From the NCBI GenBank assembly GCA_944391415.1, contig CALXTM010000006.1, positions 9,488-73,487 of the forward strand: a stretch of DNA of 64,000 nt, written 5' to 3'. The position numbers and the translations under genes are program-made. Position 1 is the stretch's first letter. Every line of letters begins with the position of its first letter. Below the pieces are notes generated by a model. The model was not told the origin of the DNA. It was given only the letters and a program-made list of their open reading frames with translations, and ran no database searches. Shown one piece after another: positions 9,564 to 38,408 of the stretch. This DNA is from an uncultured Alphaproteobacteria bacterium (GTDB lineage Bacteria; Pseudomonadota; Alphaproteobacteria; RF32; CAG-239).

Positions 9564-9641
9564 GGCGGATTTAGCTCAGTTGGTTAGAGCGCTGGTTTGT
9601 GGTACCAGATGTCGTGAGTTCGAGTCTCATAATCCGCCCCA
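9564..9641 (+). tRNA. tRNA-His (anticodon GTG) with encoded G-1 and CCA
   Basis: Hand-folded cloverleaf. Acceptor gcggatt/aatccgc, D arm gctc-agttggtta-gagc, anticodon arm ctggt-ttGTGgt-accag, T arm gtgag-ttcgagt-ctcat. Extra 5' G opposite discriminator C. Confidence 0.9.
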
Positions 9642-9946
9642 TTTAAAAAGCTCCCATGTTTTAGGGAGCTTTTTTAGTTGGGCGAATGCCGATTTGCTTG
9701 AGAGCAAATCGGATGAGACTATTCTGGCTCGTAAAGTTTGTGTTTTTTTGTAAAAAACACGCACTAACTCGCTGCGGTCACCGCTATGATAACGCTTGCG
9801 ATGCATTATAAATGACCTCGCAAGCTAACAAACGCGTAACTTACAGTCCAAAAAATTGTCATTTTTTGAACTTAAGCATAATCCGCCCCATTTAAAAAGC
9901 TCCCATATTTTAGGGAGCTTTTTTAGTTGGGCGAATGCCGATTTGC
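9628..9946 (+). repeat. 70-bp direct repeat pair (9628-9697 and 9877-9946, one mismatch) flanking a 179-bp insert
   Basis: Both copies contain the tRNA-His T-stem 3' strand, acceptor 3' strand, CCA, the terminator and the last 12 codons of mutT. The single difference is g9658 versus a9907, in the terminator loop. Confidence 0.9.
9645..9675. terminator. Bidirectional rho-independent terminator (tRNA-His / mutT); second copy at 9894-9924
   Basis: aaaaAGCTCCC-atgtttta-GGGAGCTttttt, flanked by an A-run and a T-run. Confidence 0.7.
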
Positions 9947-10347
9947 GCTATTAATTCTTTATCTGCTTCGGCAAAATTATAGTTTTTTAATTCTTGGGGA
10001 TATACCCATGCGGTTTGGCAATGTTCGGTGTCAACTATTGGGGCGTTGGGATCTGACATTGTGGCATGAAATAAATTGATTTCGACAGTGGCAAAATCAT
10101 AATTATGTGTGGTTTGAGCAATAAACTCGCCGATTTGAGCGGTTATATGCAGTTCTTCCTGTAATTCGCGTTTGAGTGTTTGAGGCAATGTCTCGCCGGG
10201 CTCTTGTTTGCCACCTGGAAATTCCCATACCAGAGGCGGTTTCTTGTCAGCCGGGCGTTGAGCAATGAAAATTTTGCCGTTTTTGGTTAAAGCTGCCGCT
10301 GCAACAGTAATCTTTTTCATGATATTTTCCTTAAAGTTTTTATTCAT
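9910..10347 (-). CDS. mutT: NUDIX hydrolase, MutT-like (8-oxo-dGTP diphosphatase family)
   Basis: Nudix box GGKQEPGETLPQTLKRELQEELHI. The start may be the internal MKKITVAAAA at 10320. Confidence 0.75.
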   Translation of the reverse strand: MNKNFKENIMKKITVAAAALTKNGKIFIAQRPADKKPPLVWEFPGGKQEPGETLPQTLKRELQEELHITAQIGEFIAQTTHNYDFATVEINLFHATMSDPNAPIVDTEHCQTAWVYPQELKNYNFAEADKELIAQIGIRPTKKAP

Positions 10348-10423
10348 AATTCTTCTTTATCTTGCAAAAGTCAAATAAATAAGTGTAAATTAAAAAATAA
10401 AATCTATATGGAGGGTAGGAGAA

Positions 10424-10975
10424 ATGAAATTTATTGTTTGCTTGATTGTGGGGGGATTGTGTTTTTGGTCAGCGGAAACAAAAGCTGACGATAATGCGGC
10501 AGAGGTGGATCAGAAGGTTGATTTGACACACTTTCAAATCGAGCAACAAGCACAAACCAAGGCAATGCAACAGATTGAAGAAAAACAAAAACTCCAAGAA
10601 GAAAAAAACGCAGCCGATGAGACAGAAGAGCAGATTAGTGAACCTATGAGTGAAAAAGAACAGCGTCTTTCAAAACGTCGGGCCGAAATTGCGGCAGAAA
10701 GAGCAAGTGAGACCAGCAGGTTTAAGAAAAAAGCCATTGAAAATACCGAGGCACGAGAAAAAAAATATGAAGAAATAATGCAAAGAAAGCAAGAAAAAGC
10801 TTCAAGATTTCAAAAAGCCGCAGCCGAGAAGGCAGAAGCTGAAAAACAAGAAGCAATTAAAAAAGCTGCCGAACCATCAAAATCGAGATTTACGGAAAAA
10901 GCCAAGCAAAGAGCTATTGAAAGAGCAAAAAAACGAGAGGAAAAAGAAAAAAGATTGCGCAGAAATCGCCGCTAA
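10424..10975 (+). CDS. Secreted Lys/Glu/Ala-rich low-complexity (coiled-coil-like) protein
   Basis: Signal peptide MKFIVCLIVGGLCFWSAETKA, then a highly charged KE-rich sequence. GGAG-type SD upstream (ggagggtaggagaaATG). Confidence 0.55.
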   Translation: MKFIVCLIVGGLCFWSAETKADDNAAEVDQKVDLTHFQIEQQAQTKAMQQIEEKQKLQEEKNAADETEEQISEPMSEKEQRLSKRRAEIAAERASETSRFKKKAIENTEAREKKYEEIMQRKQEKASRFQKAAAEKAEAEKQEAIKKAAEPSKSRFTEKAKQRAIERAKKREEKEKRLRRNRR

Positions 10976-10997
10976 ATGAAAAATTTTGAAAAAAATA

Positions 10998-11026
10998 TTG
11001 ACAAAAAGAAAAGAAGTATATATGTT
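10998..11026 (+). promoter_or_regulatory. Near-consensus sigma70-like promoter feeding the structured intergenic array
   Basis: TTGACA (10998-11003), 17-nt spacer, TATGTT (11021-11026), just after the stop of the upstream gene. Confidence 0.45.
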
Positions 11027-11060
11027 GCCCCTATCATTTTATCATTAGCATATTATTTTT

Positions 11061-11145
11061 AAGGGAAAGCTTTTACGTATAAGAGTTTACAATTCTAGCC
11101 TAAAATCAGATATTTCAGTACATAGGTTTGGGCTTTCCCTTTTTT
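11061..11145 (+). ncRNA. Module A1: long hairpin (10-bp closing stem aagggaaagc/gctttccctt) followed by a T-run
   Basis: Perfect closing stem 11061-11070 / 11132-11141, then ttttt. No ORF. Confidence 0.35.
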
Positions 11146-11149
11146 ACAT

Positions 11150-11233
11150 ATATAAGCAGAGGAACTCGTGTTTAAGGAATCTCCACCTTAGGACAGTCGA
11201 GACAACCCGTTACACCATCCTCTGCTTTTTTAA
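11150..11233 (+). ncRNA. Module B1: structured element closed by gcagagga/tcctctgc, followed by a T-run
   Basis: 8-bp closing stem 11156-11163 / 11218-11225 plus tttttt. The 3' 49 nt are identical to B2. Confidence 0.4.
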
Positions 11234-11239
11234 AATTTA

Positions 11240-11320
11240 GGAAAGGATTGCTTTCACAATTCTGGATTTCTTACCTTTGGACACTGCTGAGTTATCAGAT
11301 CATCAAAGGCAATCCTTTCC
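11240..11320 (+). ncRNA. Module A2: long hairpin (12-bp closing stem ggaaaggattgc/gcaatcctttcc)
   Basis: Perfect stem 11240-11251 / 11309-11320. Shares the internal cacaattctgg-like motif with A1. Confidence 0.35.
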
Positions 11321-11331
11321 TTATAAATTAG

Positions 11332-11418
11332 ATATAAGCAGAGGAGCTTGTGTTTGATGGATTTTCTCTACCTTAGGACAGTCGAGACAACCCGTTACAC
11401 CATCCTCTGCTTTTTTAA
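11332..11418 (+). ncRNA. Module B2: second copy of the gcagagga...tcctctgc element, with T-run
   Basis: Identical to B1 over accttaggacagtcgagacaacccgttacaccatcctctgcttttttaa (11370-11418 = 11185-11233). The 5' half has diverged. Confidence 0.4.
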
Positions 11419-11514
11419 TATCCGAGGTTGCTTAATTGTCTTCTAGCAGAGGTAACAATAAAAGCCCCTCGGTTTTTTTATAAAAATTGATAGAATACAA
11501 AATGGCGATGGTAA

Positions 11515-12798
11515 TTACCATCCTTTGGCTGCTCGAGACCATAGTTGGGTATTGTTTCCTCCGGGGTAAACCAATATTCCGCCGACAGTCGGACTTTTGC
11601 ATCCGGTCGTTTCAGGATAAGAAAAAGGTTCTTGCGTGAGAAGGCATTTTGCCATATCGGCAAAAATCCTGGCTTCCATATATTTACCGTTGTAGCCATA
11701 ATTGTCTGACCATTCAATTTTGGAAGATGGATTTTTTATTTTTTCAAATATAGCTTTATGTTCGGGAAGAATTGGTGCGTTACCATGCAAGAGATTTTGA
11801 AAATCGCTCAATATAACGGGGTTGTTCCAGCCGCCGCCAAAAATCAAAAAGTGATTAGGCGTGCCAATGGGAGAGTAGCGTAATGTATACGCAAATATAT
11901 AGGCGCTAAAAAACTCGGCCGTACGAATGCGGTCGGCAAAAGAAATGTCGGGATCTGTTAGTTCTGGAATGATTTTGTACCATGCAGGATCTGATGATTT
12001 GGGAGGATTTTTTAATAAAAAATTCTCTTGGTTTTGGGTTTGGACAGAGTGATCAAATAGCTCTTTTAACAGAGATAGATTTATGTGTCCTTGTTTGCCA
12101 TATTTACCATCAAAATCGCAAGGTTCGTTTTTTTCATGACGAGCTAAATAGTCAACAAAGTGGTTAAAAGGACCTGTGTCCCAGCCCATAACTTTGTCGT
12201 CATAGATGATTGCAATATTGCCGGTGTTGCCGCCATTGCAAAAAGCTAAAGGAAATATTCCTTTGGCTTTTAGGTCACGAGCTAAGTGTTGATTGTGGAC
12301 AGGGGCTAACGGTGCGGCTTCACCGCCGTTCATCAAATCATCAGAGCGGAAATCAAAGGCCACTGGTAACTTGATTAGGTCGGCAAGCATTTGGCCAGAG
12401 CCTATCTGCAAAGTGTTGGCTTGTTTGCCTTGAGTTGCAACCGATGGCGGAAGATGATAACAAGTTTGACCATGAAAGCCAACGGCATTTATTTTGTTTT
12501 TTGCAAATTTTGCTTTGGTAATAAGCTCGTTGACGGTTTGAGTTACTAACCTAATATAGGCATCGTGTAAGTCTTTAAAATGTAGTTTGGGGTCGTTGGC
12601 TATAGTTTTTATATCGCCGTCGTTTTGGGCCAAAATTTCTTTGAGCCGGCGGAAGCCTGATGATATTTTTTGAGGAATTTCTATTGAATGTCCGCAGATA
12701 TCAGACATTTTGTCGCCTGCAAAATGTGTTAAGACGGCATCAACAGCATCCAAAGAATTGCCCGTCATAATGCCGATGCAGTAATATTCTGAACTCAT
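11515..12798 (-). CDS. anmK: Anhydro-N-acetylmuramic acid kinase
   Basis: N-terminal IGIMTGNSLDAVDAVL and FHGQTCYH motifs, consistent with the AnmK family. Confidence 0.75.
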   Translation of the reverse strand: MSSEYYCIGIMTGNSLDAVDAVLTHFAGDKMSDICGHSIEIPQKISSGFRRLKEILAQNDGDIKTIANDPKLHFKDLHDAYIRLVTQTVNELITKAKFAKNKINAVGFHGQTCYHLPPSVATQGKQANTLQIGSGQMLADLIKLPVAFDFRSDDLMNGGEAAPLAPVHNQHLARDLKAKGIFPLAFCNGGNTGNIAIIYDDKVMGWDTGPFNHFVDYLARHEKNEPCDFDGKYGKQGHINLSLLKELFDHSVQTQNQENFLLKNPPKSSDPAWYKIIPELTDPDISFADRIRTAEFFSAYIFAYTLRYSPIGTPNHFLIFGGGWNNPVILSDFQNLLHGNAPILPEHKAIFEKIKNPSSKIEWSDNYGYNGKYMEARIFADMAKCLLTQEPFSYPETTGCKSPTVGGILVYPGGNNTQLWSRAAKGW

Positions 12799-12906
12799 AA
12801 TCTTCCTATGTCGTATATTGTTTGTATTTATGATTATGGTGGTCTAATTTTTATTGTCAATAAAATGTTTTGTTTATCATTTATGGCTATCACAAATCGA
12901 AAATTT

Positions 12907-13156
12907 TCACCCGATGTAACTCAGCAAATAAAAAAAAGCACCCCAATGGGGTGTTTTTTTGATTGGCTGCGCTACATGGATTGTGCACGCGCTATCGCAC
13001 GGTGCACCCCTAAAGGGGCTTTCAGCGTTCATGTCTGCCACAAATGCGGCAGGCATGAATCCGAACTACAATCGTGGCTCTCACCCGATGTAACTCAGCA
13101 AATAAAAAAAAGCACCCCAATGGGGTGTTTTTTTGATTGGCTGCGCTACATGGATT
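12907..13156 (-). repeat. Perfect 76-bp direct repeat pair (12907-12982 and 13081-13156, period 174 bp) flanking a 98-bp insert
   Basis: Each copy holds the tRNA-Gln 3' part from the T-loop (aatccatgtagcgcagcca on the tRNA strand), the terminator and about 30 bp beyond. The copies are identical base for base. Confidence 0.9.
13104..13134. terminator. Bidirectional terminator downstream of tRNA-Gln (duplicate at 12930-12960)
   Basis: aaaaaaaaGCACCCCaatGGGGTGttttttt. Confidence 0.65.
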
Positions 13157-13211
13157 CGAACCACGATTAACGGAGTCAGAGTCCGCTGTCCTACCATTAG
13201 ACGATAGCGCA
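13138..13211 (-). tRNA. tRNA-Gln (anticodon CTG)
   Basis: Reverse complement folds as acceptor tgcgcta/tagcgca, anticodon arm gcgga-ctCTGac-tccgt, T arm cgtgg-ttcgaat-ccatg, discriminator G, encoded CCA. Confidence 0.9.
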
Positions 13212-13335
13212 ATATGGTTTGACTGTGAAAAGGGTATATATCAATTGATTTTAAATTGCAACTAAAAAATTTTTTTAATTAAAAATGAACCTTTTTTGTT
13301 TTAACATCGTTTTAAGTGGTATGAAAGGAGAAAAC

Positions 13336-13590
13336 ATGCAAAATATTTCTGATCTTATTAAAGAAGCAAAGCCGTTGTATTTTGCCAGAAAAAAACGCAA
13401 TAATCGGATTAAGGCCGGTTTGGCAACATTGGCGTGTGCTTTTTTGCTTTTTGCTTTCATTCCGCAGAAACAATCGACGGATTTATATTACTATTGGGAT
13501 CTGGGATATACGGAAAATTCCAATAATTTGACATATGTTGAAAATTTGGGTTTGCCGGTGGATGACTACGGATTGCTTTTGGTGGGGTAA
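13336..13590 (+). CDS. Small single-pass membrane protein (candidate ECF partner)
   Basis: ATG at 13336 preceded by aaaggagaaaac. One TM (AGLATLACAFLLFAFI). Stop abuts the sigma-factor start (TAAATG). The ORF track extends it to 13285. Confidence 0.45.
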   Translation: MQNISDLIKEAKPLYFARKKRNNRIKAGLATLACAFLLFAFIPQKQSTDLYYYWDLGYTENSNNLTYVENLGLPVDDYGLLLVG

Positions 13591-14088
13591 ATGAAAGAGA
13601 TAATAGAGCAGAATAAAGGTGTTATTCGAGCTGTGATAAAAAAAATCACCGGCACCTATAATGAAGATTTGGAGCAAGAGGTATATATCAAAACCTGGCG
13701 CAATCTGCAAAATTATAAAGAAAAAGGTAAAATATCATCATGGATTGCTGCTATCACCGCAAATGTATGCAGGGATTATTTTAAATCCAAAGCCTATAAA
13801 ACCGAAAAATTGGAGGTGGCAGCCGATGAGGCATTACAGAATAAAGCTGTGCAGCCTGTGCAAGAAAAGTTGATTGATGCCAAAGCTCGTCAAAAAATTA
13901 TTTTACAAGCGGTGGATGCGTTGCCTGGCAAAATGCGCAAGGTCGTGATTTTGTTTGAGTTTGAAGATTACACTATTGAGCAGATTGCCAAAAAACTCAG
14001 AGAACCGGTAGGAACCATAAAATCGCGACTTCATAACGGAAGAAAGATTTTGGCGGAAAAACTTAAATTTTTACAAGGAGAAAAATAA
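13591..14088 (+). CDS. ECF-type RNA polymerase sigma-70 family factor
   Basis: 165 aa with region 2 (EDLEQEVYIKTWRNL...WIAAITANVCRDYF) and region 4 (FEFEDYTIEQIAKKLREPVGTIKSRLHNGRKIL). Confidence 0.85.
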   Translation: MKEIIEQNKGVIRAVIKKITGTYNEDLEQEVYIKTWRNLQNYKEKGKISSWIAAITANVCRDYFKSKAYKTEKLEVAADEALQNKAVQPVQEKLIDAKARQKIILQAVDALPGKMRKVVILFEFEDYTIEQIAKKLREPVGTIKSRLHNGRKILAEKLKFLQGEK

Positions 14089-14547
14089 ATGAAAAAAATA
14101 TTGTTAACTGCTGTTTGTGCCAGTGTATTGACTTTGTCGGCCGGATGGGCCGCTGCTCAGCCATTGCCGCCTGAGGAACCAATGGGACCAGGACCTGTAA
14201 GGATGGAAGAGCCGTTGGCAAAAAGACTTAATCTGACCGATGAGCAGAAAGAACAGGCCGAAAAAATCAGAGAAGAAGGCCGTAAAAAAATGGAGCCTTT
14301 GATGCACGAAAGAAAATTGCTGCGTGAAGAAATGGAAGAGGTGCGCAAAGAAAATATGGAGGATTTTGAGAAGATATTGACACCTGAGCAAAAAAAGATT
14401 TTTGATGAGATGAAACAACACAAGGGTCCAAAACCGCCACGCCCAGGCAAACATCGTAGACCGGGGCCAAGACCTGATCATTATCCTGAGCATCCGGCAC
14501 CATTGCCAGGTGATGGACCGGTGCGGCCTGAGCCGGTTGATGACTAG
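14089..14547 (+). CDS. Periplasmic Spy/CpxP-like (LTXXQ motif) protein with Pro-rich tail
   Basis: Signal peptide, LNLTDEQKEQAEKI and LTPEQKKIFDEM LTXXQ motifs. Start overlaps the sigma-factor stop (TAAATG). Confidence 0.6.
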   Translation: MKKILLTAVCASVLTLSAGWAAAQPLPPEEPMGPGPVRMEEPLAKRLNLTDEQKEQAEKIREEGRKKMEPLMHERKLLREEMEEVRKENMEDFEKILTPEQKKIFDEMKQHKGPKPPRPGKHRRPGPRPDHYPEHPAPLPGDGPVRPEPVDD

Positions 14548-14573
14548 TAAAATAGTTTTTTGGGAGATGGCAA

Positions 14574-14888
14574 ATGAAATATTTTATAACGGCATTAATT
14601 GCGGTTATGCTGATAAGTCCGATGGCCGAGGCAAGATGGTACGGGCATCATAGACGACATGGCGATTGTTGCTATGCGGCGGATATTGCCACAGGGATTA
14701 TCGGTACGACGGCAGGGGTGATGATTGCCAATGAACTGATGAATCATCCGCGCCGAAAACATCATGCCGAAAGAGTATATATCTATGAGCCTGAAACAAA
14801 ATGCTATACCATAGTATCTCGCAAAACCGGCAAGGTTACGCAAGAATGCGTTAGCAGTTCGGAAAATGAGGTTATCTATGTCGATTAG
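14574..14888 (+). CDS. Small secreted His/Arg-rich protein with glycine-zipper segment
   Basis: Signal peptide MKYFITALIAVMLISPMAEA and glycine zipper ATGIIGTTAGVMIA. Followed by a terminator. Confidence 0.5.
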   Translation: MKYFITALIAVMLISPMAEARWYGHHRRHGDCCYAADIATGIIGTTAGVMIANELMNHPRRKHHAERVYIYEPETKCYTIVSRKTGKVTQECVSSSENEVIYVD

Positions 14889-14910
14889 GTTATCTTAAAC
14901 TTTGTAATTG

Positions 14911-14938
14911 AAGCCGCCTTTAAAAGGCGGCTTTTTTT
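14911..14938 (+). terminator. Rho-independent terminator of the ECF cluster
   Basis: AAGCCGCCtttaaaaGGCGGCTTttttt. Confidence 0.7.
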
Positions 14939-15002
14939 ATTAAATATTAACCGTTATGATTATAAAATTGCACCAAAATCGACTGTGGGGAGATGTTGAA
15001 CA

Positions 15003-16202
15003 ATGACAAGAATCAGAGAGTGGTTTGAAAAATGGTTTAATAATGAAATGACCAGCGGTTTGTTGATGATTGCCGCGATGTTTGCTTCGATTTTGTGTGC
15101 GAATTCTCCATGGCGAGAACCGATTGAAAATTTTTGGAATACCAGGTTGTTTGTCGGTATTGCAGATGTCAAATTTTCGAGGCCGTTGGATTGGTGGATT
15201 AATGATGTTTTGATGGTGTTCTTTTTTCTGCAAATCGGTTTTGAGTTGAAGAAAGAAATAAAAGAAGGATTTTTGTCGGATCCAAAACAAATTTTGGTGC
15301 CGGCATTGGCGGCCTTGGGCGGAATTATATGTCCGGCAATTATTTATGCCATTATTAACCACGGAGAACCTCAGTATATGAATGGTTGGGCAATCCCAAC
15401 GGCAACTGATATAGCTTTTGCAATTTGCGTGTTGATGTTGGTGGGCAAGGCGGTGCCGCAGGCGGTTAAAATATTTTTACTGGCAATTGCCATATTCGAT
15501 GATTTGGGAGCAATCATCATTATTGCATTGTTTTATAATCAGGGGGTATCAATTGATTTGTTGGGTTATGCCGGGGTGGCGTGTATTTTGCTTTATATGG
15601 TAAATAAAATGCAAATTACAAGTTTCGTGCCATATCTTGTTTTGGGTGTGGCCTTGTGGTATTGCTTCTTAAACGGCGGGGTGCATACAACGATTGCCGG
15701 AGTGGTTGTGGCAATGGCATATCCGATGAGGGTTACAATGAAAAAATATTCGCCGTTGGAGCATATGATTCGTAAATTAAAACCTTGGGTCGATTTGCTG
15801 ATATTGCCGGTATTTGCTTTTGCATCGGCGGGATTGTATTTGCGTGATGTGACTTATGAAACCTTTACTCACACGCTTACTATCGGAATTATCTTGGGAT
15901 TGTTTTTGGGAAAACAAATAGGTATTTTCAGTATGACATGGTTGCTGATAAAGGCCAAAATTGCCGCTTTTCCTAAAGAAGTAAAATTGCTTGACATTTA
16001 CGGAGTGGCATCGGTGGCAGGAATTGGGTTTACCATGGCATTGTTTGTGGGTAAACTATCGTTGCCAGGAAGTATGCAAGAAGAAATTCGTCTTGGAATT
16101 TTGTGCGGCTCGTTGTTGTCGGCCTTGTGGGGAGCTGTGGTCTTTCATTGGGACAGATATTTGCAACATAAAGAAGAACTAAAAGCCAGAATGAGGATTT
16201 GA
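15003..16202 (+). CDS. nhaA: Na+/H+ antiporter NhaA
   Basis: 399-aa polytopic ORF with NhaA hallmarks (WINDVLMVFFFL, GWAIPTATDIAFA, AIFDDLGAIIIIALFY). Confidence 0.9.
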   Translation: MTRIREWFEKWFNNEMTSGLLMIAAMFASILCANSPWREPIENFWNTRLFVGIADVKFSRPLDWWINDVLMVFFFLQIGFELKKEIKEGFLSDPKQILVPALAALGGIICPAIIYAIINHGEPQYMNGWAIPTATDIAFAICVLMLVGKAVPQAVKIFLLAIAIFDDLGAIIIIALFYNQGVSIDLLGYAGVACILLYMVNKMQITSFVPYLVLGVALWYCFLNGGVHTTIAGVVVAMAYPMRVTMKKYSPLEHMIRKLKPWVDLLILPVFAFASAGLYLRDVTYETFTHTLTIGIILGLFLGKQIGIFSMTWLLIKAKIAAFPKEVKLLDIYGVASVAGIGFTMALFVGKLSLPGSMQEEIRLGILCGSLLSALWGAVVFHWDRYLQHKEELKARMRI

Positions 16203-16258
16203 AAATATCTGATATCGTAACTATATAATAAACAGCATAATCATTAAGGAGAAAAAAT

Positions 16259-16798
16259 ATGGTTACGATGAAATTTAAAAATGCCAAATGGAATTTAATT
16301 GCCGGAATTGCCATGTTGGCATTGGGGCTTTTGATTTGGTTTAATCCTTTTGGAACAATGTTGGCATTGGCCTTTTATATAGGGCTCGGCTTTATTTTGA
16401 TCGGAGCATTTTATATGATGGCTTCGATGAATGTCAAATCAGGCTGGTATTTATTGGTCGGAGCTCTTGATTTGTTGGTTGGGTTGATTTTGATATTTAA
16501 TCTGGGGGTTACGGCGGCAAGTTTGCCGATTATTTTGGCGCTGTGGAGTTTGGCCGTAGGCGTTATCCAGATTATAGGGGCTTTTGAGGTCAAAAAATTT
16601 GCTTTGCCGTGGAAATGGTCGGCGATTATGGGTGGTGTTGGAGTAATCTTTGGATTGGTTATTTTGGCATATCCGATTATTGGCGCGGTTACCATATCAA
16701 CAGTGGTTGGTTTGTATGCGGTAATGTTTGGTATTTTGCAATTGATAGAGTACAAAATATCTAAAAACAGCTATACAATCGTGATTGAAAACAACTGA
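16259..16798 (+). CDS. HdeD/DUF308-family membrane protein
   Basis: 179 aa with six repeated Gly/Leu-rich TM helices in the DUF308 pattern. Confidence 0.65.
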   Translation: MVTMKFKNAKWNLIAGIAMLALGLLIWFNPFGTMLALAFYIGLGFILIGAFYMMASMNVKSGWYLLVGALDLLVGLILIFNLGVTAASLPIILALWSLAVGVIQIIGAFEVKKFALPWKWSAIMGGVGVIFGLVILAYPIIGAVTISTVVGLYAVMFGILQLIEYKISKNSYTIVIENN

Positions 16799-16801
16799 TG
16801 C

Positions 16802-27732: not shown

Positions 27733-27737
27733 GTTGG

Positions 27738-31454: not shown

Positions 31455-31570
31455 ATATTTGGTTAAATCACAAAAAATCCTCAGGCAGTTGCTTGGGGAT
31501 TTTTTGCTTGCATAATAGGGGTTTTTGTGATAGTTTTTAGGATATAAGTTTAATTTTTAAGATTATTAGT

Positions 31571-31834
31571 ATGGATGTAGGAATTTTAATATTGCGAATT
31601 GTCGTTACAACGATTATCGCAAGTTTTTTGCTTTATTGGTCCTGGTTGAAAAATAATTCATTCAGGTCGTTTGTGGCCATTTTGGCTGGAGCTTTGGGAG
31701 TGGCGATTGTCGGCGGAACAACGGTTGATTTGTTTCGGGTTTCTTGTATTTCAGGATTTTGGGGTATAGGAGTGGCGATAGTTGCTTTCGGAATGGTTTG
31801 GCTGGTGTGCTATAAAATAGTTTTTAAAAAATAA
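31571..31834 (+). CDS. Small hydrophobic membrane protein
   Basis: 87-aa ORF with three predicted TM helices. No homology recognised. Confidence 0.4.
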   Translation: MDVGILILRIVVTTIIASFLLYWSWLKNNSFRSFVAILAGALGVAIVGGTTVDLFRVSCISGFWGIGVAIVAFGMVWLVCYKIVFKK

Positions 31835-31842
31835 TTATTATT

Positions 31843-32070
31843 ATGGACTTTTTGTATGTTTTGGTGGGTCTGATATTGGAATTTGTCTTTGGTTTTTTGA
31901 TGAGTGTCTCAATAGAAAAACTTGATGAAGGCATATGGTTCTTGTTGTTGTATGTCTCTATAGGGGGCATACTATACATTGCAGCTTTGCTTGGCGCTTT
32001 GGCCGGTTGGCTTGTGTTTTTAGGGCTGCTCGCAGGGGTGGCAGGTAATGTTGTAAATGATATAAGGTAA
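31843..32070 (+). CDS. Small hydrophobic membrane protein
   Basis: 75-aa ORF, 8 nt after the previous one, with two to three TM helices. Confidence 0.4.
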   Translation: MDFLYVLVGLILEFVFGFLMSVSIEKLDEGIWFLLLYVSIGGILYIAALLGALAGWLVFLGLLAGVAGNVVNDIR

Positions 32071-32212
32071 TGTATTTAAAAGGCGGTGTTCTTAAATTTT
32101 AGAGCGCCGCTTTTTTGATGATGCAGGCTATGGCAAGTTAGAGCAGACTTGACATAACCTTATATTTGAGCTACAAACGCCTCAAGTTTTTTGACAAGCA
32201 GGACATGATAAG

Positions 32213-33781
32213 ATGAATAAAGTTAATCCACGTAAAACATTTGCCATTATCTCGCACCCCGATGCCGGTAAGACAACTTTGACCGAAAAATTGTTGCTGT
32301 TTGGCGGGGCTATTCAGCAAGCCGGTGCGGTTAAAGCCAGGGGTGAAAACAGACGTGCTCGCTCGGACTGGATGAAGGTGGAGCAGGAAAGAGGAATTTC
32401 GGTTGCCTCGTCGGTGATGACGTTTGATTATGACGGAATTACTTTTAATCTGTTGGACACACCGGGACACGAGGATTTTTCGGAGGATACATATCGGGTA
32501 TTAACCGCGGTTGATTCGGCGGTGATGGTGTTGGATTCGGCCAAAGGTATTGAAACACAAACCAAAAAGTTGTTTGAGGTTTGCCGCCTGCGTGATGTGC
32601 CGATTATTACTTTTATCAACAAACTTGACCGTGAGGGGCAAGATCCATTTGCGCTTTTGGATGAGATTGAACGCACTTTGGCGTTGGATGTAACACCGGC
32701 AAGCTGGCCGGTCGGGTCAGGCAAAGATTTTAAGGGGTGTTATGATATCTTAAACAATCGTATGATTTTGATGGAAAAAAATAAATCGGCCATTAACAGT
32801 GTAATTGAAACATGCTCGGGACTTGATGATCCGAAACTTGATGAAATGTTGCCCGCCTATCAAGTGGCAAAATTGCGCGAAGATGTGATGATGATACAAG
32901 AGCTTTGTCCAAAATTTGATTTGGAGGCTTATTTGGCCGGAACGCTTACCCCGGTGTTTTTTGGCAGTGCTATCAATAATTTCGGCGTGAAAGAAGTATT
33001 GGAAGGTCTGCATAAATTTGCTCCAACTCCAAGACCGCATCCGGCGCAAGAGAGAATGGTGTCACCTGATGAAAACAAAGTAAGTGGTTTTATATTCAAA
33101 ATCCAAGCTAACATGGATCCCAAACACCGCGATAGAATTGCGTTTATGCGGATTTGTTCGGGGCATTTTAGGCGCGGACAGGCACTAAAACAGATCAGAA
33201 CCGGCAAAGAAATCAAAGTGGCAACACCGGTGATGTTTATGGCTCAAGAAAGAGAGCTGGCCGAGGATGCATATGCCGGGGATATTATCGGTATACCCAA
33301 TCATGGGCAGCTTAGAATCGGCGATACTTTGACCGAGGGTGAAAAAATAACTTTTACCGGAATTCCGTCGTTTGCACCGGAATTGTTAAAGTCGGTTAGG
33401 GCGCTTGATCCTCTGAAATCAAAGCACCTTGGCGATGCGTTGAAACAAATTGCCGAAGAGGGCGGAGCAAGCGTGTTTAAGCCGGTGATAGGTGCCGAGT
33501 GGATTGTTGGCGTGGTTGGCGTGTTGCAGTTTGAGGTGATGGCAGACAGAATTAAAAACGAATTTGGTTTGCCGGTAATGTTTGAGCCAACACAATATTT
33601 TACCGCCAGGTGGGTGTTATCGGATGATAAAACGGAAATGAAAAAATTTGAGGATGCCAACCGGCTTAATCTGGCCGAGGATCACGACGGAGAGCTGGTG
33701 TTTTTGGCTCGCAACGCATGGCATTTGAACAAGACAGAGGAAGACTTCCCCAAAGTTAAGTTTGCCAAAATTAAAGAATAA
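32213..33781 (+). CDS. prfC: Peptide chain release factor 3
   Basis: RTFAIISHPDAGKTTLTEKLLLFGGAIQ and DTPGHEDF GTPase motifs; 522 aa. Confidence 0.95.
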   Translation: MNKVNPRKTFAIISHPDAGKTTLTEKLLLFGGAIQQAGAVKARGENRRARSDWMKVEQERGISVASSVMTFDYDGITFNLLDTPGHEDFSEDTYRVLTAVDSAVMVLDSAKGIETQTKKLFEVCRLRDVPIITFINKLDREGQDPFALLDEIERTLALDVTPASWPVGSGKDFKGCYDILNNRMILMEKNKSAINSVIETCSGLDDPKLDEMLPAYQVAKLREDVMMIQELCPKFDLEAYLAGTLTPVFFGSAINNFGVKEVLEGLHKFAPTPRPHPAQERMVSPDENKVSGFIFKIQANMDPKHRDRIAFMRICSGHFRRGQALKQIRTGKEIKVATPVMFMAQERELAEDAYAGDIIGIPNHGQLRIGDTLTEGEKITFTGIPSFAPELLKSVRALDPLKSKHLGDALKQIAEEGGASVFKPVIGAEWIVGVVGVLQFEVMADRIKNEFGLPVMFEPTQYFTARWVLSDDKTEMKKFEDANRLNLAEDHDGELVFLARNAWHLNKTEEDFPKVKFAKIKE

Positions 33782-33796
33782 GAAAAGTCGCGTAAT

Positions 33797-33833
33797 AAAA
33801 ATAACCCCTTGGATATCCAAGGGGTTATTTAAT
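33797..33833. terminator. Bidirectional terminator between prfC and tig
   Basis: aaataACCCCTTGGatatCCAAGGGGTtattt. Confidence 0.65.
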
Positions 33834-33845
33834 AGCTAAAAAGCA

Positions 33846-35201
33846 CTAGGCTGATTTTTTGGCTGCTTTTTTGCTTTCTTTCTTTTCATCGTCGAACTTA
33901 TAGAGCTCTTCGACCGAAACAACTTTTTCGTTTAACTTGGCCTGAGAGATAATATAGTCGATAATCTTTTCCTCAAAAATCGGAGCTTTGAGAGCCTCAA
34001 CAGCATGTTTGTTTTTGAGATAGTAATCCAAAACCATTTGTTCTTGGCCAGGGTATCTTTTAGCTTCGTTCATGATGGCAGCATTGATATCCTCAGGTTT
34101 GATGCTGATTTTGGCATTTTGGCCAACTTCGGATAATACAAGGCCAAGTTTGACTCTGCGCAAAGCAATGTCTTTATACTCTTTGAGCAGATCTTCTTCT
34201 TTTTTGGATTTTTCTTCTGCATCAAGTTGATTGTATTTTTTGGCTTGTTCATATTGCGAAACAATAGCCTTATATTCAGCATCAACCAAAGATGCTGGAA
34301 CTTCAAATTTATATTCCTTATCCAGAATGTCCAAAAGCTGGCGTTTTAATTTCATGCGCGAAGCATTGTCATAGTCGGCTTTGATGCGCGATGCCAAGGT
34401 CTCTTTTAATTTGGCTAAACTCTCGGCACCCAAAGATTTGGCCAAGTCATCGTTGATTTCAACTGCTTTGGGCTCACGAACCTCTTTGACAGTGACGGCA
34501 AAAACAGCATCTTTATCAGCTAAGTCCTTGGCATGATAGTCTGCCGGGAATTTGACTTTGACGTCAACTTTTGAGCCAGCCTCAGCCCCAATTAATTGGT
34601 CTTCAAAACCAGGGATGAATGCGCCAGAGCCAAGCTCTAGAGGATAGTTTTCACCTTTGCCGCCGTTAAATTCAACACCGTCAACCGAGCCAACAAAGTC
34701 AATCATTACAATGTCGCCTTTGGCTGCTTTTTTGCCATCAACTTTGACGGATTCTTTGCGGGTTTCGGCCAGATATTTGACAGCCTTGTCAACTTCTTCG
34801 GCCGGAACTTCGGCAGTGAATTTATCAAGTGAAATTTTCGAAAAATCACCGATTTTAATGTCTGGCAAAATTTCAACATCCATCTCAAACTCAAGATCTT
34901 TGCCTTCGCCAAAAGAATTTATCTTGACGGATGGTTGGTTGACCGGACGCAATTTCTTGTCGGAAAGTACTTGGCTGGTTGAGGAACGAACCATGTCATC
35001 CAAAGCTTCGGCCATAACCTCGTTGAAATATTTTTTCTTGATCATTGACAACGGAGCTTTGCCAGCTCTGAAACCTTGAATTTTTGCCGTCTTGGCAATA
35101 TGGGCCAGTTTGTTGTCAACTTCTTTGGTAAAATCGTCTGCAGGAACAACAACTTTGTATGATTTGTTTAGCCCCTCAGATTTTAATTCGGTAATTTTCA
35201 T
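33846..35201 (-). CDS. tig: Trigger factor
   Basis: 451 aa. N-terminal ribosome-binding GFRAGKAP motif, FKBP-like middle, Lys-rich tail. Confidence 0.95.
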   Translation of the reverse strand: MKITELKSEGLNKSYKVVVPADDFTKEVDNKLAHIAKTAKIQGFRAGKAPLSMIKKKYFNEVMAEALDDMVRSSTSQVLSDKKLRPVNQPSVKINSFGEGKDLEFEMDVEILPDIKIGDFSKISLDKFTAEVPAEEVDKAVKYLAETRKESVKVDGKKAAKGDIVMIDFVGSVDGVEFNGGKGENYPLELGSGAFIPGFEDQLIGAEAGSKVDVKVKFPADYHAKDLADKDAVFAVTVKEVREPKAVEINDDLAKSLGAESLAKLKETLASRIKADYDNASRMKLKRQLLDILDKEYKFEVPASLVDAEYKAIVSQYEQAKKYNQLDAEEKSKKEEDLLKEYKDIALRRVKLGLVLSEVGQNAKISIKPEDINAAIMNEAKRYPGQEQMVLDYYLKNKHAVEALKAPIFEEKIIDYIISQAKLNEKVVSVEELYKFDDEKKESKKAAKKSA

Positions 35202-35247
35202 GCAATTTCTCTCTTTGTTAAAATTTAACCACCTTTGGCTTTTGGGA

Positions 35248-35332
35248 TGGTGCGGGTGAAGGGACTTGAACCCCCACTCCTTGCGGAACCAGATCCTAAG
35301 TCTGGCGCGTCTACCAATTCCGCCACACCCGC
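35248..35332 (-). tRNA. tRNA-Leu (anticodon TAG)
   Basis: Reverse complement gives acceptor gcgggtg, anticodon arm ccaga-ctTAGga-tctgg, a long variable arm, T arm and encoded CCA. Lies directly upstream of tig. Confidence 0.9.
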
Positions 35333-35489
35333 TTGATTGCCACTATAAGCCGTTTAATTGCCTGAATACTAACGTATTATTTTTATAAATCAAGTATAAA
35401 TTCACAATGCAAACAAAATTATTGTAATATCGTTTAATCTTTTATATTATGAGCTAAACAAAAGAATTTATTCGGGAGTATGTGGATTT

Positions 35490-36707
35490 ATGTTGGCTCG
35501 AAATTTGACCAAAACTTTGTTGTCTGCCACGGCTTTGAGCCTTTTGACAGCTTGCGCCGTAGTTGATAAAAGAGATACGTCTGAGGAATCAAACTGGTTC
35601 GTAAAAATGTTTGAAAAAGACGGGCAAAATTATGCGCAAAAGGCCTCGCTTGAGTATTTGCAGGGTAATTTTGAAAAAACTTTGGAATATACAACCGAGG
35701 CACTCAAGGCAAATCCCAGAAACGAACAGGCTTTGCTGGTAGGGGCGTTGGCTTGTGAAAAATTGGGCAGATATAACCGAGCAAGACAATATTACGAAGA
35801 CCTGATAATAATTGACGGTAATGAAACGTCTATATTGGGAACAAGTGACGGGCAGCCGCATAAAATTACCGATATTGCCAAAAAGAATTTGCGCGCGATA
35901 ACCATTACCCAGAATAAATTGACAATTGAAAACAGGGACGGAAGCAAAAGTTTTGCCGTGTCAGAAAAAACAGGACAAGAGGCAAGCAGAAATACCATAA
36001 CCGAGGCTTTGCGTAAAAAATCAATGCCGGTGGTTAGACAACAACCAATCGGAGTGGATGATATCTTTACGCCAGCGCAACAGAATATGGTTTCGCGTTT
36101 CCTTATCTTAAAAGAATTGGCCGAAAAAGATTTTATTACCAAAGAAGAATTTTTGTCGCGGCGTTCGGCTAACTTGGGGGCTTTGTTACCTTTGACCAAT
36201 ATGGCTCCTGGTGTGGGGATGGATAATCCTGTGCCTGATGCCGATTTGATTATTGAACGTTTGGAAATTTTGAAAGAAGGCGTTGAAACCAGAGCAATTA
36301 CTCCGCGTGAGTTTTCGGCTGAACGTGAGGTGATTATTGAGGCGTTGATGTCGCCTGAACCTCGTCAAAGAATGCAAAACAAGGCTCCGTCAAAAAATAT
36401 TTTGGATGCTGCAGGTGATTTGCGGCGCTTGGAGGTGTTGTACAACCTTGATTTGATTACCGCAAATGAAAAAGAAACCGAGAAAAAAGCAGTGGAAAAA
36501 TATTTGGGCATTAACCGCGATAGACCAAAGGCAAATGCGGTTAAAGAGATCAAAAAACAACCAACTGCGGTTGAAAAGACTGCTAAAGACGATGTAAAGC
36601 CGGACGTACAAAAAGATGTTGAGACAGTGAAAGAAAATACTAAAGAAACAACAGCGGTTAAACCTGTAGCTGGTACGCCAACACCTGATGTGACAAGTCC
36701 TTTCTAG
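35490..36707 (+). CDS. Lipoprotein with N-terminal TPR repeats and three SHOCT-like repeats
   Basis: Lipobox LLTAC. TPR-like LEYLQGNFEKTLEYTTEALKANP.... Three repeats: ELAEKDFITKEEFLSRR, EGVETRAITPREFSAER, NLDLITANEKETEKK. Confidence 0.6.
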   Translation: MLARNLTKTLLSATALSLLTACAVVDKRDTSEESNWFVKMFEKDGQNYAQKASLEYLQGNFEKTLEYTTEALKANPRNEQALLVGALACEKLGRYNRARQYYEDLIIIDGNETSILGTSDGQPHKITDIAKKNLRAITITQNKLTIENRDGSKSFAVSEKTGQEASRNTITEALRKKSMPVVRQQPIGVDDIFTPAQQNMVSRFLILKELAEKDFITKEEFLSRRSANLGALLPLTNMAPGVGMDNPVPDADLIIERLEILKEGVETRAITPREFSAEREVIIEALMSPEPRQRMQNKAPSKNILDAAGDLRRLEVLYNLDLITANEKETEKKAVEKYLGINRDRPKANAVKEIKKQPTAVEKTAKDDVKPDVQKDVETVKENTKETTAVKPVAGTPTPDVTSPF

Positions 36708-36721
36708 AGAAAGTCAGATAA

Positions 36722-36753
36722 TAAAAAAAAGCGGAATTTTTATTCCGCTTTTT
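36722..36753. terminator. Bidirectional terminator
   Basis: aaaaaaaaGCGGAATttttATTCCGCttttt. Overlaps the last codons of the minus-strand gene. Confidence 0.65.
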
Positions 36754-37753
36754 GTTTTTCTTGTTTGGCAATTTCTTGCATCCTGAATAGTTTGATGCGC
36801 TCTAACTGTTGCTTCTTGACATATTTGAGATAGCCCTCATAGCTGAACAAGACAATGGCCGAAAGCACCAATGGCAGCAGGTAGTAAATAATGCGGTAGG
36901 CAAGCAATGCCCCAAACAATAAGGCCTGATTGTGATCGCCTGGGATGATATACATAAACAACCCCTCAAAAACGCCAAGGCCACCAGGAACTTGGCTGAA
37001 CACACCCAAAACCTGGGCGATGATAAATACCCCCATAAAGGTTGAGAACGGGATGTCAACAAAGGAAATAAGCGAAAAATATAGCACCAGCGAGGCCATT
37101 AAAATATCAACCGCGCCGATTATTACCTGTGCCAAGGCCATTTTGAAATTTGGCATATCAAACTCAACTTCTTTGATGATAAGCGGTTTTTTATACCAAA
37201 TACTCAAAGCAAAATAGCCAATCAAACCAATTAGAGAAACAAATGCGACTATCTCGGTGGTGAGCTTGGAAACAGAGCCTGCGCCGAAGGCATGATTGGG
37301 GGTGATAAGATAGCCGATGATGATTAAGAAGAAACAAGCAACCAGATAGGTAAAGCCAGAAAAGGTTACCATGCGGACAATCTCGGTTCCCCTAAAACGC
37401 CAGCGGGTATACAGGCGATAGCGGATGGTGCCGCCCGAGACAATAGCATGGCCGGCATTGTTGCTGACCGAAAAACCAATGAAACCGGCAAAAATCCACT
37501 TCCAAGGTGCCAGCTTGCGTCCAATGTAGCGCAAAGCCAAGTAATCATATGATGACAGGGCTACATAGCCCATAAAAGAAGCCAAGCAGGCAAGATAGAA
37601 ATTCTTGGGAGGAATCGAAAACAGCGCATCCTTAATGTCGTCAAGGCTATATTTGGAAAGTTGGCGATAGAGCATATAAGCGGCAACGCCGAAAAAAAAC
37701 AGTCCGGCCCAAGAAATTATCTTTTTTAAGACACGTTTGGTGGAAAAAGCCAT
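36740..37753 (-). CDS. UPF0104/YbhN-type (lysylphosphatidylglycerol-synthase TM-region-like) membrane protein
   Basis: 337-aa polytopic ORF. The pattern SYDYLALRYIG...GFSVSNNAGHAIVSGGTIRYRLY is typical of this family. Confidence 0.65.
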   Translation of the reverse strand: MAFSTKRVLKKIISWAGLFFFGVAAYMLYRQLSKYSLDDIKDALFSIPPKNFYLACLASFMGYVALSSYDYLALRYIGRKLAPWKWIFAGFIGFSVSNNAGHAIVSGGTIRYRLYTRWRFRGTEIVRMVTFSGFTYLVACFFLIIIGYLITPNHAFGAGSVSKLTTEIVAFVSLIGLIGYFALSIWYKKPLIIKEVEFDMPNFKMALAQVIIGAVDILMASLVLYFSLISFVDIPFSTFMGVFIIAQVLGVFSQVPGGLGVFEGLFMYIIPGDHNQALLFGALLAYRIIYYLLPLVLSAIVLFSYEGYLKYVKKQQLERIKLFRMQEIAKQEKQKAE

Positions 37754-37887
37754 TTTGATATCCTTATTTAATTTTTTTAATCTGTATCAGTTATAATTTG
37801 CCAACCGGCAAACGTCAATATTTATATAATCTTTATTAGATGAGATAAAAGGAGAAATGGGTGATGGTAAAATATAAATTATGGTTT

Positions 37888-38354
37888 GTCTCCCATTACC
37901 ACAACCAAAAAAGCTCCTCATGTTGAGGAGCTTTTTGAATTGGAGCAGGTAACGGGAATCTTTTAGTTTGAGTTGTAACGCTTGCCGGTTGGCACTGACG
38001 TTTTCGGCGCGCTAACAACTCTGCACCGCAAAGGCCTCGCAGCCAAATCGTTGGCTGCTCCTCACTTTGCGCCCTCTCGGGTTCGTCTCCCATTACCACA
38101 ACCAAAAAAGCTCCTCATGTTGAGGAGCTTTTTGAATTGGAGCAGGTAACGGGAATCTTTTAGTTTGAGTTGTAACGCTTGCCGGTTGGCACTGACGTTT
38201 TCGGCGCGCTAACAACTCTGCACCGCAAAGGCCTCGCAGCCAAATCGTTGGCTGCTCCTCACTTTGCGCCCTCTCGGGTTCGTCTCCCATTACCACAACC
38301 AAAAAAGCTCCTCATGTTGAGGAGCTTTTTGAATTGGAGCAGGTAACGGGAATC
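37888..38354 (-). repeat. Perfect 197-bp tandem repeat, 2 full units plus a 73-bp partial third unit that forms the 3' part of tRNA-Gly
   Basis: 73-bp blocks at 37888-37960, 38085-38157 and 38282-38354 carry the tRNA-Gly T-loop to CCA, the terminator and about 20 bp more. They are separated by two identical 124-bp inserts. The two identical 69-aa ORFs in the track (37896..38105, 38093..38302) reflect this. Confidence 0.95.
38301..38330. terminator. Terminator downstream of tRNA-Gly (copies also at 37907-37936 and 38104-38133)
   Basis: aaaaaAGCTCCTCAtgtTGAGGAGCTtttt. Confidence 0.65.
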
Positions 38355-38408
38355 GAACCCGCATATTAAGCTTGGGAAGCTCACATTCTACCATTGAATT
38401 ATACCTGC
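38335..38408 (-). tRNA. tRNA-Gly (anticodon CCC)
   Basis: Reverse complement gives acceptor gcaggta/tacctgc, anticodon arm tgagc-ttCCCaa-gctta, T arm gcggg-ttcgatt-cccgt, discriminator T, encoded CCA. Confidence 0.9.

Follow-up and report, generated by a model that had tools for sequence, protein, structure and literature searches.

Why would a tRNA gene be followed by a second copy of its own tail and terminator, with a short and unrelated stretch of DNA in between? This question is raised by 64,000 nt of DNA (GC content 0.42; referred to here as the window) from an uncultured alphaproteobacterium (GenBank assembly GCA_944391415.1, contig CALXTM010000006.1), in which the genes for tRNA-His, tRNA-Gln and tRNA-Gly exhibit such an arrangement. 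Based on a comparison with fetched loci and contigs (designated L001 through to L119), the best reading is that these three loci are members of a lineage-wide class of small, protein-less, folded modules located directly behind tRNA terminators in uncultured gut and rumen Alphaproteobacteria. The modules were shown to consist of an inverted copy of the 3′ third of the tRNA, a multi-hairpin (mostly GC-rich) body, a direct copy running from the T-loop to the CCA end, and a terminator. Since the tail of the tRNA and a terminator are repeated at the end of each module, the order of elements at a locus is tRNA 5′ part, direct repeat (R), insert and R.

Repeat architecture of the tRNA loci

A repeat search of the window, combined with ARAGORN and Rfam, confirmed the order tRNA 5′ part–R–insert–R reported in the initial annotation for tRNA-His (GTG; 9565..9641, + strand; Rfam tRNA score of 67.5 bits), tRNA-Gln (CTG; 13138..13211, – strand) and tRNA-Gly (CCC; 38335..38408, – strand). 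The start of R lies, in each of the three cases, within the T-loop or the 3′ strand of the T-stem; R then spans the CCA end and a terminator composed of an A-run, a hairpin and a T-run, and ends 22–25 nt past this terminator (56–59 nt past CCA), with unit sizes in the window of 174–249 bp. Since these repeats of 70–78 nt and 99–100 % identity are located at three of the four tRNA genes, a chance origin can be ruled out. The fourth gene, tRNA-Leu (TAG; ARAGORN; 35248..35332, – strand), was used as an internal control and, as originally stated, lacks the structure: the repeat search and a shuffle-tested alignment detected neither a direct repeat nor an inverted copy (z=–1.0).

At tRNA-His, R copy 1 (9628..9697, + strand; 70 nt, 99 % identical to copy 2) was shown to comprise the last 14 nt of the tRNA, TTT, a terminator hairpin (9645–9675) and a further 22 nt (9676–9697) with a weak resemblance to the inverted 3′ end of tRNA-His. 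It is followed by a hairpin-rich insert of 179 nt (9698..9876, + strand; GC 0.39) and by R copy 2 (9877..9946, + strand), the last 37 nt of which represent the 3′ end of a convergent NUDIX ORF. At tRNA-Gln, R copy 1 (13081..13156, – strand; 76 nt, 100 % identical to copy 2) covers AAT of the T-loop, the 3′ strands of the T-stem and acceptor stem, CCA, a terminator-like site and the left portion of an inverted tRNA copy. The Gln insert (12983..13080, – strand; 98 nt, GC 0.57) opens with what remains of the inverted T-arm, a pseudo T-arm (GTAGTTCGGATTCATG) and hairpins coming next, and R copy 2 (12907..12982, – strand; 76 nt) is followed by the native promoter region of the AnmK-encoding gene.

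The tRNA-Gly locus had been described as a single insert of 124 bp between repeats of 73 bp, which proved to be incorrect. This locus contains three 78-nt copies of R at 99 % identity (38277..38354, 38080..38157 and 37883..37960, – strand) and two identical inserts of 119 nt (38158..38276 and 37961..38079, – strand; GC 0.56), equivalent to 2.4 copies of a 197-bp unit (196/197 positions identical). The Gly R opens with GATT of the T-loop, continues over CCA and the terminator, and closes with 24 nt of inverted tRNA copy; copy 3 is followed by the native promoter region of a gene encoding an LPG-synthase-like protein. The suggestion that the inserts are GC-richer than their surroundings therefore stands for Gln and Gly, and not for His. 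BLAST detected no homology among the three inserts, in agreement with the original observation, or between them and other fetched loci (the Gly body of a sister species aside). No further tRNA 3′ copies, which would make the flanking genes cargo, were found downstream in the window.

An inverted tRNA copy closes a folded unit

Terminal inverted repeats were initially considered to be absent. However, past the terminator and on into the insert, an imperfect inverted copy of the 3′ part of the same tRNA was identified, and this copy is clear for both Gln and Gly. For tRNA-Gln, it corresponds to the 3′ strand of the acceptor stem and the whole T-arm (13070..13099, – strand; GCTGAGTTACATCGGGTGAGAGCCACGATT versus GCTGCGCTACATGGATTCGAACCACGATT; local alignment score 30, z=6.6, 0/300 shuffles), straddling the boundary between R and insert; for tRNA-Gly, it is located at 38275..38294 (– strand; GGTAATGGGAGACGAACCCG versus GGTAACGGGAATCGAACCCG; z=5.4, 0/300 shuffles). 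Only an 8-mer was observed for tRNA-His (z=0.9 against shuffles). A significant inverted copy is confined to tRNAs that carry modules.

As the tRNA tail recurs in inverted form after the terminator, R represents a long imperfect palindrome centred on the terminator, and the 3′ third of the tRNA is present three times in the order direct–inverted–direct. In minimum-energy folds of the Gln and Gly units, the inverted copy pairs with the tRNA 3′ copy at the far end of the insert, thereby closing a multi-hairpin domain. Minimum free energy (MFE) z-scores of the units range from –4 to –11 on either strand, with values of –8 to –9 for the His unit.

Related modules behind other tRNA genes

The AnmK protein encoded next to the Gln module matched only proteins from metagenome-assembled genomes (MAGs) of uncultured gut Alphaproteobacteria, with a best identity of 81 %. 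Behind tRNA-Trp, units of 179–191 bp were found, with one each in L005 and L012 and two in tandem in L007, while L013 contains one unit at the displaced tRNA end of an insertion of roughly 1 kb; in L001, a unit is located behind tRNA-Ser. The left part of these units is composed of CCA, an A-run of their own, a terminator, a T-run, an inverted copy of the tRNA 3′ part and a purine loop of 4–6 nt. The right part comprises a direct copy of the 5′ strand of the T-stem plus TTCGA, a GC-rich body, AAT, the 3′ strands of the T-stem and acceptor stem, and CCA. An inverted copy behind tRNA-Trp was not found in L004, L009, L013 and L015.

A search pattern representing the first hairpin of these units (GAACTCNYGRRRRAGNGAGTTYGA) retrieved 54 metagenome loci from human gut and rumen, and yielded no matches in viral contigs. 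At approximately 23 of the 54 loci, the motif is located 50–60 nt behind tRNA-Trp(CCA), tRNA-Val(TAC), tRNA-Ser(TGA) or tRNA-Thr(TGT) in the same orientation, and in other loci it closes a longer array behind tRNA-Trp. Complete units in relatives span 164–194 bp, and tandem arrays were observed in L037 and L044 (three units each) as well as in L070.

The same body was shown to be associated with different tRNAs. Bodies designated type B (GACAAGGAGGAGCAGGCGAGACGGAAGTATCGCCGC...; roughly 93–95 % identity by eye over ~55 nt) were found at tRNA-Trp, tRNA-Thr and tRNA-Val, and in each case the tRNA-derived parts, namely the inverted copy, the direct half T-arm and the right end, correspond to the tRNA of that locus. 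Similarly, a type-A unit with its ends re-matched to tRNA-Met is present in L100 (MT837473.1, positions 6307–6560). This accession is an unverified 'Bacteriophage sp.' record from human faeces, which looks like a bacterial contig of the present lineage. Across the lineage, the layout thus recurs at tRNAs for eight amino acids (His, Gln, Gly, Trp, Val, Ser, Thr and Met).

Relatives often repeat only 12–19 nt internal to the tRNA, and their module is followed after CCA by an unrelated terminator (L061, L069, L077, L079 and L083). The proposal that a repeat extending beyond the tRNA core sets these loci apart from classical tRNA-targeting elements consequently holds for the window and does not extend to these relatives.

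Variation in unit number within the species

Alleles of the Gly locus were collected from contigs, derived from many samples, that encode exactly the ClpP of the window, and alleles of the His locus from contigs encoding exactly its NUDIX protein. At tRNA-Gly, L020 and L022 contain no unit, L016, L017, L019 and L021 contain one (insert copy 2 being missing), and two are present in the window, with at least two in L023; in the single unit of L018, 110 bp of the body are duplicated internally. The corresponding 249-bp indel at tRNA-His is present in the window, L033, L034, L026 and L027, and missing from L031, L028, L029 and L032. The tRNA-Gln locus harbours one unit or, in L027, at least two.

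In some strains, the R copies differ by single nucleotide polymorphisms (SNPs), indicating that the copies are real and partly independent. Many short-read contigs break within R (L026–L030 and L035), and copy numbers in tandem arrays may therefore be mis-estimated.

A separate feature of L033 and L034 is that the ~120 bp located 5′ of tRNA-His (window positions 9444–9564) look clearly diverged, at roughly 75 % identity by eye, while the sequence from tRNA-His onward, including the module and the NUDIX-encoding gene, is nearly identical to that of the window. tRNA-His looks like the boundary of a recombination tract.

Empty and filled sites in a sister species

A sister species, in which tRNA-Gly(CCC) remains beside clpP, was reached via ClpP (96 % identity). 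Its empty allele (L119) consists of tRNA-Gly, the terminator and unrelated flanking DNA without an inverted copy. The filled allele (L117) reads tRNA 5′ part, R, U (the inserted segment), R, followed by the same flank as in L119. In L117, R spans 51 nt (TTCCCG...CCA plus the terminator through to the end of its T-run), and the duplicated block runs exactly from the T-loop to the terminator end, including the sister species' own terminator loop. U spans 141 nt and is composed of an inverted tRNA copy (22/28 positions match) and the body. The inverted copies of both species share departures from a perfect copy, and U, including its inverted arm, consequently has a single origin.

The Gly bodies of the window and the sister species are identical at 113 of 115 positions. 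By comparison, clpP and clpX exhibit 87 % nucleotide identity, with third positions at 0.69 and 0.66, respectively, and the spacer between clpP and the tRNA gene is 83 % identical. The conservation of the body by far exceeds the neutral level given by these third positions, which indicates either strong purifying selection or recent movement. Some strains of both species can dispense with the body. Within each species R1 and R2 (i.e. R copies 1 and 2) are identical, while the terminator loop differs between the species (AACATG versus ATTTCAA).

The gene following tRNA-Gly encodes the LPG-synthase-like protein in the window species and an M20 peptidase in the sister species, indicating that the module site is also a rearrangement breakpoint. 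When window positions 36740–38408 were compared with L090–L099 and L117–L119, the LPG-synthase-like gene was found to adjoin tRNA-Gly in the window species only; in relatives, the gene preceding it is secA, rplA or one encoding a hydrolase. Another contig of the sister species, L118, contains a different and much larger insertion 3′ of tRNA-Gly (971–1044), which interrupts the terminator loop (between ...GCTCCTCATTT and TGATCTGTCCCCCGAAAG...) and is followed by ORFs.

The tRNA-His locus provides a further view of what lies beyond the terminator. The NUDIX ORF (9910–10347, – strand), convergent on tRNA-His, has its 3′ end (9910–9946) in the last 37 nt of His R copy 2, which encode ...QIGIRPTKKAP*, and its stop codon falls inside a shared bidirectional terminator. 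The deduced protein contains 145 aa, compared with 129–138 aa for its homologues, and includes an insertion of 5 aa (GIRPT), for which the 15 nt of R that resemble an inverted tRNA are the coding sequence and which is missing in all NUDIX homologues examined. The closest relative ends in ...LKNVI*, with the terminator directly after. Since the homologues do not contain these 5 aa and the empty site of the sister species does not contain the corresponding segment, the part of R beyond the terminator is derived. The 'empty' alleles of the window species keep a footprint and are not virgin sites. Virgin orthologous sites were also sought via homologues of the LPG-synthase-like and NUDIX proteins, for which synteny is not kept; only ClpP provided the locus in the sister species. 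Of the comparison between empty and filled sites proposed at the outset, both alleles were thus seen and a clean pair was obtained in the sister species, with the reservation that the empty sites of the window species are not virgin.

An RNA-like signature in the type-A subfamily

Type A is the best-sampled subfamily, and 20 of its units were aligned. RNAalifold recovered hairpins 1 and 2 from this alignment, and a structure drawn by hand adds a closing helix (Px) and a third hairpin, which together form a three-way junction. In the hand-drawn structure, 87 % of cells are paired (98.8 % in hairpin 1) and 16 of 24 pairs exhibit compensatory changes; its covariation score was 0.314, compared with 0.129 for shuffled alignments (0/500 reach the observed value) and 0.02–0.07 for slid controls. 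The type-A body is defined by hairpin 1 followed by the junction of Px, hairpin 2 and hairpin 3, with a core of GAC-TAC-AAG ... GGT ... ATGAGCGC. On the tRNA-sense strand, approximately 15 of the 20 units exhibit a GNRA tetraloop (GGGA, GGAA, GTGA or GAAA) at the apex of hairpin 2. In four sequences, the usual CGAA/TGAG of Px (a tandem G.A motif) gives way to perfectly complementary 4-mers that differ from case to case. Such features point to a functional RNA read in the direction of the tRNA, with a folded single DNA strand as the alternative. A covariance model built from the alignment identified 75 instances in the fetched loci.

A hammerhead-like interpretation of the type-A junction, based on its AUGAG, GAAA and GUC motifs, was rejected: the strand order around the junction does not fit, the bases of the core are not constant, and in many members the site at which cleavage would be expected reads GUG.

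Cassette arrays and cargo behind tRNA-Trp

In one repeatedly sampled species, the distance between tRNA-Trp and a fixed type-B unit at the native flank varies from 0.9 to 3.8 kb (L038, L041, L045, L046, L054, L065, L066, L074 and L088). This interval is filled by differing single-gene units, each of which ends in a copy of the tRNA-Trp 3′ part, and the region between tRNA-Trp and secE/nusG represents a hot spot of stacked units (also in L004 and L013). Unit ends consist of the tRNA 3′ copy, (C/G)T(C/T)AAGATAAAG with a terminator, and an inverted-repeat motif, AGTCCGTG. Encoded products include a UvrD-like helicase, a STAND-like NTPase, an HNH nuclease, an HSDR_N protein, a GNAT protein and proteins without assignment, with a PD-(D/E)XK protein encoded nearby, and this cargo looks defence-like. 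Some cargo units open with the left end of the mini units (L053, L073 and L010).

Comparison with known systems

The initial annotation knew of no described element with this signature, and none was found among Rfam families, among the annotated features of phages and plasmids, or in the searchable literature. With Rfam 15, only the four tRNAs were detected in the window at the gathering threshold, and searches of the loci and related modules in E-value mode returned noise. When five units were concatenated and compared by BLAST with collections of phages and plasmids, MT837473.1 was the sole match, and literature searches retrieved no description of such an element.

Islands that target tRNA genes and encode tyrosine integrases accrete successive units next to the tRNA (Islander, PMC4383910; tycheposons, bioRxiv 10.1101/2020.12.28.424599), and the integrases of tycheposons form a separate lineage for each tRNA (bioRxiv 10.1101/2020.12.28.424599). 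Like these islands, the modules are inserted at the 3′ part of the tRNA, leave the tRNA intact, have their far end marked by a displaced 3′ fragment starting at the T-loop, are stacked in tandem beside the tRNA and, in relatives, are accompanied by defence-like cargo. In contrast to islands, the modules measure 164–249 bp and are non-coding, and no integrase was found in any unit or in the 30 window ORFs scanned. Furthermore, each unit contains an inverted tRNA tail and a conserved RNA-like fold, and one body is found at many tRNAs. R extends through the terminator in the window, whereas several relatives exhibit only an att-like repeat of 12–19 nt, as in islands.

Integron cassettes form arrays that lack a recombinase and end in attC sites, which are imperfect palindromes, and non-coding 'empty' cassettes exist. 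The modules similarly represent recombinase-less arrayed units with an imperfect palindrome of ~50–140 nt at their end, which could form a hairpin, and with entry at the anchor-proximal end. An attC site is an imperfect palindrome with conserved R and L boxes at the 3′ end of the cassette; R is an imperfect palindrome at the unit end and may to this extent be comparable. However, the anchor is a tRNA gene, which together with its terminator is the source of the repeated site, and the copies of this site at a given locus are identical.

The non-autonomous, att-flanked CIMEs of Streptococcus as well as MITEs, REPINs and RPEs are comparable in being small, protein-less, folded, bounded by inverted repeats, polymorphic for presence and absence, and presumably mobilised in trans. 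The modules differ from these elements in their strict association with the cognate tRNA tail, in flanking repeats of 12–78 nt (2–10 nt in the known elements) and in ends that are copied from the target tRNA. Whereas the terminal inverted repeats of MITEs are derived from insertion sequences, the inverted tRNA copy that pairs with the right end of the module (Gln and Gly; weakly in His) is derived from the target. No autonomous element related to the modules was found, and no transposase was detected in the scanned window ORFs. CRISPR spacer acquisition and casposons also duplicate a partly palindromic block around new DNA, yet R is tRNA-derived and 51–78 nt long, the inserts are folded and 98–179 nt long, and the two Gly inserts are identical, unlike the unique, uniformly long spacers of CRISPR arrays.

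Work on Salmonella by the Roth laboratory has reportedly described tandem inversion duplications that arise by snap-back at short palindromes. The modules share with these the direct–inverted–direct order and a first junction at a natural palindrome (the terminator), and differ by a conserved foreign body at the second junction and by their recurrence at many tRNAs and in many species. Group IIC introns, IS200/IS605, IS91, Xer/dif-like elements, retrons and long terminal repeat elements with a primer-binding site were weighed and rejected, as size, flanking repeats or an absent matching protein did not fit. Neither cas genes in general nor Cas1, a casposase, an intI/attI/Pc platform, an IS110-type protein or a reverse transcriptase was seen among the scanned window ORFs.

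The modules thus share single features with each of the nearest known systems and, in every case, lack a feature by which that system is defined. We regard them as tRNA-targeting integrative DNA, the mechanism of which has a genuine chance of proving to be of a new kind.

A model of module behaviour and its alternatives

We propose that the modules are integrase-less cassettes which would recombine at the T-loop-to-CCA part of tRNA genes by means of a recombinase encoded elsewhere and which, in relatives, would be stacked with single-gene cargo cassettes having the same ends. By analogy with the type-A subfamily, the body of the window inserts may act as an RNA made in the direction of the tRNA. 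Since no promoter was found in the units, such an RNA would arise by read-through or co-transcription, and the tRNA-like closing helix with the terminator copy may serve as a handle for processing and termination. Where two copies of R are present, recombination between them would delete or amplify units, thereby generating the zero-, one- and two-copy alleles. The additional 22–25 nt of R past the terminator may represent a truncated further unit rather than ancestral flank. This composite of integrase-less, RNA-like cassettes recombining at tRNA tails is held tentatively, with a probability somewhat short of even. A more specific version, in which the modules are cargo-less members of an integron-like, tRNA-anchored cassette system whose structured RNA would have tRNA-complementary and tRNA-identical segments that program, or are copied from, the insertion site and so allow retargeting to any tRNA without a recombinase of their own, is distinctly unlikely.

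Several observations weigh against the proposed model. No integrase or transposase Pfam domain was detected in 30 window ORFs (all of those of 250–420 aa included), in line with the original remark that no integrase is nearby, nor in 7 ORFs of L010, 9 ORFs of L004 and L013, or 10 cargo ORFs. A promoter scan inside the units revealed nothing convincing. The insert of the His module is AT-rich and the inverted copy of this module is weak. When the type-A model was applied to the window (cmsearch, filters off), the best insert score was 5.7 bits (E=8.8); as the window inserts fail this model and are mutually unrelated, they represent other families with the same layout, which the RNA argument reaches by analogy only. 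The truncated-unit idea needs truncation near the inverted T-loop at all three loci, for which some specific cause is required. Finally, R1 and R2 carry the same species-specific terminator in both species, which fits duplication of the target better than a terminator borne by the element, unless gene conversion homogenises the copies.

The last point favours a target-duplicating insertion, in which a top-strand nick in the T-loop and a bottom-strand nick ~50–78 bp downstream (at the terminator end or the inverted T-loop) would be followed by enzymatic joining of the insert and by repair that duplicates the block as a giant target-site duplication, with a geometry like that of CRISPR repeat duplication by Cas1–Cas2 or of transposase attack at an extruded cruciform. 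The exact extent of the sister-species block, with its own terminator loop around an insert that is 98 % identical between the species, fits this idea and the earlier proposal that the flank was duplicated from the target. The same applies to the palindromic nature of R around the terminator, to the two R boundaries, which for Gln, Gly, L078 and L081 occupy roughly mirror-image positions in the direct T-arm and its inverted counterpart, and to the native NUDIX-coding sequence within the His R. However, in the many relatives that repeat only 12–19 nt, with an unrelated terminator after CCA (the five loci listed above), the tRNA-adjacent terminator is not a copy of the downstream one. In addition, the inverted copy is part of the transmitted unit, its derived changes being common to both species, and no Cas1, casposase or transposase candidate is present in the scanned window ORFs, leaving this explanation unlikely, if still to be reckoned with. 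Alternatively, a template switch without a dedicated enzyme may have occurred, i.e. snap-back at the terminator palindrome, reverse copying and a second switch with the body as captured filler, followed by homologous recombination between R copies and selection on some bodies. Such a process would account for the direct–inverted–direct tRNA 3′ third, for a first junction at a palindrome whose hairpin is extended by the A-run and T-run, for an inverted copy that ends 2–3 nt past the T-stem with a loop of 4–6 nt to the next direct copy, and for copy numbers that vary as unequal crossing-over predicts. It is nonetheless improbable: the same bodies of 55–115 nt occur at six or more tRNAs and in different species at 93–98 % identity, cargo cassettes have the same left end, and the bodies have a covarying fold. 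Independent accidents would not capture the same filler.

RNA-programmed mobility would regard the inverted copy, with complementarity to the right of the T-loop in the tRNA gene, and the direct T-arm half, with identity to the left, as guides for a bridge-RNA-like recombinase acting in trans, or for a reverse transcriptase, such that re-matching the guides would retarget the same body to a new tRNA. The occurrence of one conserved RNA-like body with every tRNA-derived part fitted to Trp, Val, Ser, Thr or Met, the GNRA loops on the sense strand and the cassettes without a recombinase of their own are consistent with this proposal. The putative guides, however, pair with each other in the almost invariably paired hairpin 1, unlike open guide loops, and no IS110-type, reverse transcriptase or other candidate was found in the scanned window ORFs or cargo units. 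Moreover, IS110-type insertion is not known to leave flanking repeats of 12–78 nt. Overall, we consider RNA programming quite improbable. An assembly artefact or chance repeat is hardly credible, even though short-read contigs that end inside R may distort the copy numbers of arrays. Independent assemblies from different studies and assemblers reproduce the same junctions, together with linked SNPs and with empty, single and double alleles that agree with one another, and the architecture recurs in at least 54 unrelated metagenome loci, corroborating the initial view of a specific, recurrent architecture.

If the proposed model of integrase-less cassettes is true, this gut and rumen alphaproteobacterial lineage uses tRNA tails as landing pads for recombinase-less units that range from RNA-like modules of 170 bp to single-gene, defence-like cassettes of 4 kb. 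This would constitute a new route to hypervariable islands, beside integrons and integrase-borne islands, and, with at least 75 instances, a new class of structured RNA that Rfam does not include. As one conserved body is re-matched to many tRNAs, it may be asked how a mobile unit copies or reprograms its target-specific ends, and an RNA-guided or target-templated process would be of possible interest for genome engineering. On a practical level, the repeats break short-read assemblies at tRNA genes, and their length polymorphism is usable in strain typing.

A separate hairpin repeat near the AnmK-encoding gene

Two copies of an unrelated element of roughly 105 nt (89 % identical, 185 bp apart) are located at window positions 11133–11421, between a 183-aa ORF (ending at 10975) and the AnmK ORF (ending at 11515). 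No Rfam match and no link to a tRNA were found for this element. On the – strand, it is predicted to form one long closed hairpin (GCAGAGGA...TCCTCTGC; MFE z=–5.2 to –5.6), and the length of the intergenic region varies by ~180 bp among strains (367–372 versus 540–557 bp). Upstream of the AnmK-encoding gene in a related MAG (L011, 2442–3143), a 117-bp tandem repeat is present in approximately 5–6 copies, with 62–73 % identity to the reference copy.

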